64,000 nucleotides of DNA, from NCBI RefSeq assembly GCF_056746865.1, contig NZ_CM163382.1. One strand, 5' to 3'. Shown here one piece after another: positions 5,110-6,471 of this stretch; the first letter of the stretch is position 1, and the number at the start of each line of letters is the position of its first letter. The notes beneath the pieces are model-generated. The model was given only the letters and a program-made list of their open reading frames with translations, did not search any database and had not been told where the DNA came from. Both the position numbers and the translations under genes were made by a program.

Positions 5110-6471
5110 TTAATCTTTACGCGGGTCGTTGATCGGCTGACGAACCAGGAAGATGTACGCCAGTGCTCCCGCTGCGGTGACGCAACCGCAGATGATTAGT
5201 GCCAGACGGAATGAGTGGGTGGTATCAACAATAAAACCAGTAATGATCGGCGCAAAAGAGGCGCAGATGAAGCTGGCAAAGTTCTGGATACTGCCCACCG
5301 ACGCCGTCATGCGAGAAGCAACTGCGACGTGGATCAAGCCCCAGCAGGATGTTCCGGCAAAGTGAATACAGAACAGTGCCATGCCAATCAGCAGAACCGC
5401 CGTCATGGATGTTGTCGCTTGCGGTACGACCAGCGTAAAGGCGGCAGAACAGAACATCCCGGCAATAATGCAGATCTTACGGCTTTTAATCGGAGCCATT
5501 CCCCCTTTGACCAGCCAGTCAGTAACGTAACCGTTGACCAGCATCCCGGCAGCCCCAAACAGGAAAGGGATAGCCGCCATCAACCCTGTGCTTTTTAAAT
5601 CCAGGTTATAGGCTGTTTGCAGGTAACCAGGAAGCTAGGCCAGATACAGCCACGCAGTGTAGTTGATGCCACTGAATCCGAGCATCATTCCCCACATTGT
5701 GCGGTTACGGAACAGGCTGCGCCATTCGGCAAAACTGAGCGGATCTCGGCGGGCATTGACGCTACCTGCATTGAGATAAGCTTGTTCAACGGCAGTCAGT
5801 TCTACGTGCTCGCGGTTGCGATAGAGCATATACCAGCCAATGGCGAGAAAAATCCCCAGCACACCAATGGTAATAAACATCCCATGCCAGCCCATCACCA
5901 GCATCATCGCCGCCAGAATCGGTGGGCTTACGGCAACGCCAATGGTAGAAGCTGCGTTGAAGAAGCCCATCGGGCGTCCGCGCTCTTTGATGTTGAACCA
6001 GTCGTTAATGACTTTTACGCCACATGGGTTCATCGGCGCTTCACCAATCCCCATACCGATACGCACCAACACGAACTGCGTAAAGCTGTGCACCATGCCA
6101 GACATGGCCTGGAACAGTGACCAGAAGAACATCCCCAGTCCCAGCATCAGGCGTGGGCCTTTACGATCCAATAGTGGGCCGCAAGGAAGTTGCGCAATCC
6201 CGTAAGCGAGTGAAAACACGGAGAGCAAAGCGCCGATTTCGGTGGCACTTAATCCCAATTCTTCACGAATCGTTAAATTTGCTACCGACAGCGAACTGCG
6301 GTCGAGATAATTGATTACCGCCGCAAAAAATAATAACAACATGGCGGTGGTTTGAATGCGTTTAATTCGGGTACTGCGTTGAACTAATCCATCTGGTGGC
6401 ACGGGAATATCTGCCGACGAAGATGGAGTAAATGAAGAACGCGGATCGAGGGTGATATTTTCTTTTTCCAC
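5110..6471 (-). pseudogene. lgoT: MFS L-galactonate transporter interrupted by an in-frame TAG (amber) codon
   Basis: Track ORFs 5635..6471 and 5110..5583 are in the same minus frame; the frame is open across 5584..5634 except for TAG at 5635..5637 (plus strand CTA); combined length 453 codons as for intact LgoT/YjjL. Confidence 0.7.

Follow-up and report, generated by a model that had tools for sequence, protein, structure and literature searches.

An amber codon at position 279 of the L-galactonate transporter gene lgoT in part of the Escherichia coli ST69 clone

INTRODUCTION

The L-galactonate transporter LgoT of Escherichia coli K-12 was crystallized and its structure solved at 2.2 Å (2026 LgoT preprint). 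The protein has 12 transmembrane helices (TM), arranged in a TM1-6 and a TM7-12 bundle with the cavity between them, and inter-bundle contacts such as Y90-F401 were reported. In the same preprint, a K-12 ∆lgoT mutant did not grow on L-galactonate and LgoT was assigned as the sole importer. By sequence, the closest solved homologue is the D-galactonate transporter DgoT (PDB 6E9N/6E9O; E 1.6e-53, residues 41-444), which has the 12-TM ACS fold. DgoT, an intact protein, is paralogous to LgoT and opposite in stereospecificity.

Here, we studied an lgoT copy located in a 64-kb stretch of E. coli DNA, hereafter called the window. This copy is the orthologue of K-12 lgoT: length and frame agree, and so does the tsr / lgoT-lgoR / lgoD / opgB neighbourhood, but its product ends after 278 residues whereas K-12 LgoT is intact. 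Lineage-specific nonsense pseudogenes of pathogenic E. coli clones and whole-locus losses of lgoT are comparable cases, in that a metabolic accessory gene is likewise lost in one clone. Unlike in whole-locus loss, the lesion is here a point mutation, the rest of the locus is intact, and the defect is polymorphic in the clone. A further parallel is provided by the supE44-suppressed ambers of K-12 laboratory strains, which are likewise in-frame UAG codons in chromosomal genes, but no classical suppressor allele was found in the genomes that carry the lgoT amber. An earlier note, made from the letters of the window alone, had offered three outcomes for this locus: a strain unable to import L-galactonate, a gene rescued by read-through or by a suppressor tRNA, or a sequencing error. 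We evaluated these possibilities by comparison with public genomes and proteins.

RESULTS AND DISCUSSION

A single amber codon interrupts lgoT in an otherwise intact locus

Retranslation of the minus strand gave 454 codons including the terminal TAA, with a single internal stop. This agreed with the description in the earlier note of one 453-codon frame whose lone interruption is a TAG. The amber is codon 279, with ...TAWLYLA before it and LPGYLQTAY... after it, and a normal TAA ends the frame. The coordinates are collected in Table 1. Two open reading frames (ORFs) lie in this frame, one at 5635-6471 (278 aa) and one at 5110-5583 that starts from an internal TTG. Both halves matched K-12 LgoT, as the name given to them had implied, with 19 nucleotide differences over 1362, that is, 98.6% nucleotide identity over the full length and in the same frame. 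At the protein level, the window copy differs from K-12 by four substitutions (I8L, N129S, R196H, and I348V) plus W279*. Because both halves match K-12 LgoT, this is one orthologue that has been broken, rather than a pair of ORFs that arose by chance.

Table 1. Features of the lgoT locus and tRNA genes of the window (positions in the window)
Feature	Position	Strand	Basis or remark
lgoT pseudogene (L-galactonate:H+ symporter, ACS family of MFS)	5110..6471	-	translation, K-12 comparison, PGAP, Pfam
Amber TAG replacing Trp279 (TGG), G836A in gene coordinates	5635..5637	-	K-12 and allele probes
Translated N-terminal fragment, 278 aa: N-terminal bundle, cytoplasmic linker, most of TM7	5638..6471	-	ORF and MFS_1 coverage
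Untranslated C-terminal remnant, codons 280-453 plus TAA, TM8-TM12	5110..5634	-	ORF list, hydropathy
Strong intrinsic terminator 3' of lgoT, 11-bp stem then T run	5073..5102	-	
lgoR (GntR-family regulator), intact, 304 aa	6686..7600	-	single H140Q vs K-12
lgoD (L-galactonate oxidoreductase), intact, 340 aa	7739..8761	+	WP_000106030.1, as in K-12
Three tandem tRNA-Leu(CAG), leuQPV cluster	17830-18152		ordinary anticodons

The surroundings of lgoT are those of K-12: lgoR lies upstream on the same strand, lgoD is divergent, and the locus sits between tsr and opgB. The statement that lgoR and lgoD are intact also held true, since LgoR differs from the K-12 protein by one substitution and LgoD has the K-12 accession, WP_000106030.1, common to the carriers and K-12. 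(By carriers, we mean the genomes with the TAG allele.) Downstream, tsr is convergent. The terminator after lgoT and the convergent tsr place lgoT last in its transcript, so that no polar effect of the stop is expected. The inactivation of lgoT is already flagged in public RefSeq annotation: in every carrier genome whose annotation was examined, PGAP treats the gene as a pseudogene ("lgoT, MFS transporter, internal stop").

The ancestral codon is TGG and the amber is not an error

The earlier note had assumed a TGG (Trp) reference codon, one G-to-A change away from TAG. This assumption was borne out. K-12 has TGG at this place, and a comparison with the lgoT alleles of other strains, which had been suggested as a check, was carried out on 5,426 complete E. 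coli genomes with 55-mer probes that carry the variable base at position 28. Since megablast was run with an exact 28-nt word, every seed spans the variant. The TGG probe was found in 4,450 genomes and the TAG probe in 52, while lgoT is missing altogether from 907 genomes. Thus, the amber is present in ~1% of the lgoT-bearing genomes (52 of about 4,500), in one clonal background only. The twin allele, in which TAG is replaced by TGG and codon 279 is the sole difference, occurs at 100% identity in 27 genomes. As in a nonsense pseudogene, the premature stop is derived relative to intact orthologues and sits on a defined background.

A possibility was that the TAG reflected a sequencing or assembly error and that the true codon was TGG, as might be thought of an allele that differs from the common one by a single base. 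This has practically no chance of being right. The 52 complete genomes with TAG were sequenced independently, from many laboratories, hosts, and countries; the whole 1,362-nt TAG allele was recovered at 100% identity in at least 40 independent closed E. coli genomes; and, in a collection of 15 billion proteins, the exact sequence of the 278-aa truncated LgoT was encoded by 1,000 or more contigs of NCBI, ENA, and Logan origin. Moreover, TAG tracks one clonal background and is not randomly distributed. The error offered in the earlier note can therefore be set aside.

Two genomes with the flank of the window, FDAARGOS_1291 and PS1Phumofeces1, were on neither the TAG nor the exact-TGG list, and we considered a pseudo-reversion of the amber. 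This was discarded, as both have TGG, plus an unrelated C950A. These two clone members have TGG279 and one and the same other change in lgoT (C950A, predicted T317N, in TM8).

The amber allele is polymorphic within ST69

Carriers with published typing were ST69. MS14387 was typed as ST69 O17:H18 (PMC10024524), EC6868 is an ST69 strain according to the title of PMC10840416, and the nearest references of ST69 wastewater isolates were the carriers 118UI, NMBU-W13E19, and SCU-313. The sources of the carriers span several continents and comprise humans, dogs, chickens, ducks, wastewater, and surface water.

To place the mutation, we used the DNA that flanks lgoT. The 25 kb beside the gene were identical or near-identical in 44 genomes, of which 29 had TAG and 15 had TGG. 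When ±20 kb were compared, all that separated the window and the carriers FDAARGOS_497, 19KM1778, MLI106K4, and EC6868 from the TGG strain 3347558, whose flank is the same, was G836A plus zero to one private single nucleotide polymorphism (SNP), and G836A was the only consistent difference from the same-flank TGG strains over 40 kb. We had considered that the TGG twin strains might all come from other lineages. Some of them do look distant: MS6198, ECONIH1, and LS45 show 0.2-0.6% flank divergence from the clone haplotype, and FUJ80154, which has the twin allele, is ST648 according to a published abstract. Yet others have a flank identical to that of the window, which rejected the idea. The existence of same-flank TGG strains indicates that TAG and TGG are polymorphic within the clone. 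Since the carriers are about one G-to-A change from 3347558 over ±20 kb, comparison of the flanks points to the amber as a recent, derived G-to-A transition, still polymorphic within the ST69 clone, and the simplest reading of the common 40-kb haplotype is that TAG arose once.

Literature searches that linked ST69 with lgoT, yjjL, or L-galactonate returned no report, and the association of the amber allele with part of ST69 may have gone unremarked in the literature.

The stop removes most of the C-terminal bundle

The repaired LgoT covers the whole Pfam MFS_1 model (1-347/347), whereas the 278-aa product covers 1-215/347 and loses 216-347. TIGR00893, the galactonate-transporter subfamily of NCBIfam, whose model is built around DgoT-type proteins, was the best family for both the repaired (267 bits) and the truncated protein (179 bits), with both scores under its curated cut-off of 395. 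Hydropathy segments of the C-terminal part were found at residues 294-317, 330-385, and 392-447, which placed TM8-TM12 after residue 294, that is, beyond the stop. Of the six helices that make up the C-terminal bundle, the predicted product therefore lacks five, and the window lgoT does not encode a complete 12-TM MFS fold in one uninterrupted ORF. The lost tryptophan itself lies in a stretch shared with the paralogue: DgoT keeps the Trp279 equivalent and P-x-Y-L (LAWLPGYL in LgoT, LTWFPNYL in DgoT).

Since LgoT is assigned as the sole importer in K-12, the truncation leads us to expect that carriers do not grow on L-galactonate. No phenotype report for ST69 carriers on L-galactonate was found in the literature searched. 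Among the three outcomes offered in the earlier note, we favour the strain that cannot import L-galactonate; loss of protein function and the growth phenotype are what we infer from the truncation, and carriers most likely cannot use this substrate.

Residual synthesis of LgoT was examined under two forms. First, termination might be leaky. The base 3' of the amber codon is C, and UAG followed by C is a relatively weak termination context in E. coli, so that near-cognate read-through of TAG-C could yield a little full-length LgoT and a weak rather than a null phenotype. However, when no suppressor is present, background read-through of UAG generally stays well below 1%, and at 279, a position that is conserved in DgoT, a residue other than Trp would probably be inserted. 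Nor is there a hint of programmed recoding: the stop is not conserved among the lgoT-bearing genomes, and programmed read-through or recoding would call for a stop conserved across lineages and for selection on the frame behind it, while this one is limited to its clonal background. We thus regard leaky synthesis of LgoT as improbable.

Second, translation might restart after the stop, and the two fragments, TM1-7 and TM8-12, might assemble into a permease. Split fragments of LacY reportedly form a working permease, by experiment. In lgoT, in-frame TTG297 and ATG298 codons (5583 and 5580) lie 17-18 codons past the stop, in the predicted TM7-TM8 loop. Against this, the Shine-Dalgarno-like CAGGG upstream of the restarts is weak and badly spaced. 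Depending on the codon used, a restart would also drop residues 279-296 or 279-297, and with them a conserved motif, W-x-P-x-Y-L, at the end of TM7, and a further lesion was gained in the locus of EC6868. The 157-aa restart product was absent, as a called protein, from the public protein collection. We consider a split LgoT very improbable.

Classical amber suppressors are absent from the carriers

The notion that the amber is read by a suppressor tRNA encoded at another locus, so that LgoT is made, is drawn from laboratory strains of the supE type, and nothing that speaks for it was found. Within the 64-kb window no suppressor tRNA was found, the only tRNA genes being three tRNA-Leu(CAG). The search for supE-type alleles, which the earlier note had proposed for the rest of the genome, was run on the complete E. 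coli genomes. Probes were 55-mers taken from K-12 glnV/X, tyrT/V, serU, leuX, and trpT, with the anticodon changed to CTA and mismatching spacer bases between them. They matched 162 of the 5,426 complete E. coli genomes. Among the matches listed (70), known supE44 laboratory strains such as C600, DH5alpha, DH1, and S17-1, as well as DSM 498 for serU, served as positive controls.

When the lgoT-TAG and the suppressor probes were combined, 214 genomes were found, and none of them was hit at more than one place. As 214 equals 52 + 162 with one place each, there is no overlap: the carriers and the suppressor-allele genomes (supE, supF, supD, supP, or trpT-CUA) are disjoint, and no carrier (0/52) has a CTA-anticodon allele of the five classical single-base amber suppressors. 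Rescue by a suppressor tRNA, which the earlier note had kept as an option, was refuted for the five classical suppressors, and we see next to no room for it.

Incidentally, we noticed that the suppressor-allele genomes listed were K-12-sized and that many were named laboratory derivatives. The PGAP feature at the glnV suppressor site was "none" in all listed genomes but one (DSM 498, which has the serU allele).

Little further decay in the carriers, but frequent loss of lgoT in the species

We next looked for other lesions at the locus. Most carriers had no further lgoT lesion. In EC6868 (NZ_CP095083.1, piece 17799-18779), a second, independent lesion was observed, an IS5 between lgoR and lgoT with lgoR shortened to 894 nt, and the carrier MLI106K4 has a variant of the LgoR protein. 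Beyond EC6868, there is no positive sign of relaxed selection among the carriers. The intact lgoR and lgoD and the few extra lesions fit a very recent loss.

At the scale of the species, lgoT has been repeatedly gained and lost across E. coli (parsimony score 71). Loss of lgoT function is thus commonplace in E. coli, and it occurred here by point mutation.

A proposed history of the allele and its meaning

Taken together, these data lead us to the following scenario, to which we give a probability of about 0.88. A G-to-A transition would have turned Trp279 (TGG) of lgoT into an amber codon in an ancestor within the ST69 clone, and the lgoT-TAG allele would have been passed on clonally since. 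TM7 would be translated almost to its periplasmic end, leaving 278 residues. This fragment, devoid of TM8-TM12 and with half of the substrate cavity incomplete, would not make a working L-galactonate:H+ symporter, and carriers would be unable to grow on L-galactonate despite intact lgoR and lgoD. The loss at codon 279 is an ordinary lineage-specific gene inactivation in part of pandemic ST69.

One may wonder whether the loss of L-galactonate import was adaptive, or a hitch-hiking marker, in a successful ST69 sub-lineage, convergent with the absence of lgoT in about 17% of E. coli. We hold this for rather unlikely, and the amber may just as well have been carried along as a neutral passenger. 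If the marker reading were true, the SNP at codon 279 would define a clade in extraintestinal-pathogenic ST69, and a simple growth phenotype would go with it. In any case, a metabolic contrast is predicted within ST69, with TAG members failing to grow on L-galactonate as opposed to TGG members, and the allele could be used as a cheap marker of an ST69 sub-lineage. Otherwise, the amber matters little beyond annotation hygiene, as it involves no recoding, no suppression, and no new mechanism. It illustrates how often lgoT, an accessory function, is lost in E. coli.

Other features of the window

A few additional observations were made. The window and the carrier FDAARGOS_497 differ by 2 SNPs over the 23 kb that precede 49180, and then by ~1.5% over 49180-64000, a region with robA, creABCD, arcA, thrLABC, yaaA, and yaaJ. 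We asked whether the window was an unusual recombinant, since it differs from FDAARGOS_497 beyond 49 kb. This was ruled out, as most clone members match the window at 100% there. From these alignments, it is FDAARGOS_497 that carries an imported recombination tract from 49.18 kb onwards, a tract that the window lacks.

In the annotation of FDAARGOS_497, the parts collinear with window positions ~33810-34075 and ~39585-39940 (its pieces 7583-7845 and 13357-13711) contain small fragments of pseudogenes, namely a helix-turn-helix gene with a frameshift and partial copies of a NadS-family gene and of a hypothetical gene.

Between yjjV and yjjW, a tandem repeat of 101 bp occupies 26117-26629 of the window in 5.1 copies with 97% identity, and its unit looks like a palindromic sequence of the REP/BIME type.

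Finally, the length of tsr (3397-5061) varies in the clone. FDAARGOS_497 is without 33 nt at about 4857-4900, which makes its protein 543 aa long compared with 554 aa. The GCC repeat at which these bases are missing (4879-4895) is soon followed by a poly-Gln run of CAG/CAA codons (4948-4969), and the difference is an in-frame repeat contraction in the C-terminal tail of the serine chemoreceptor.
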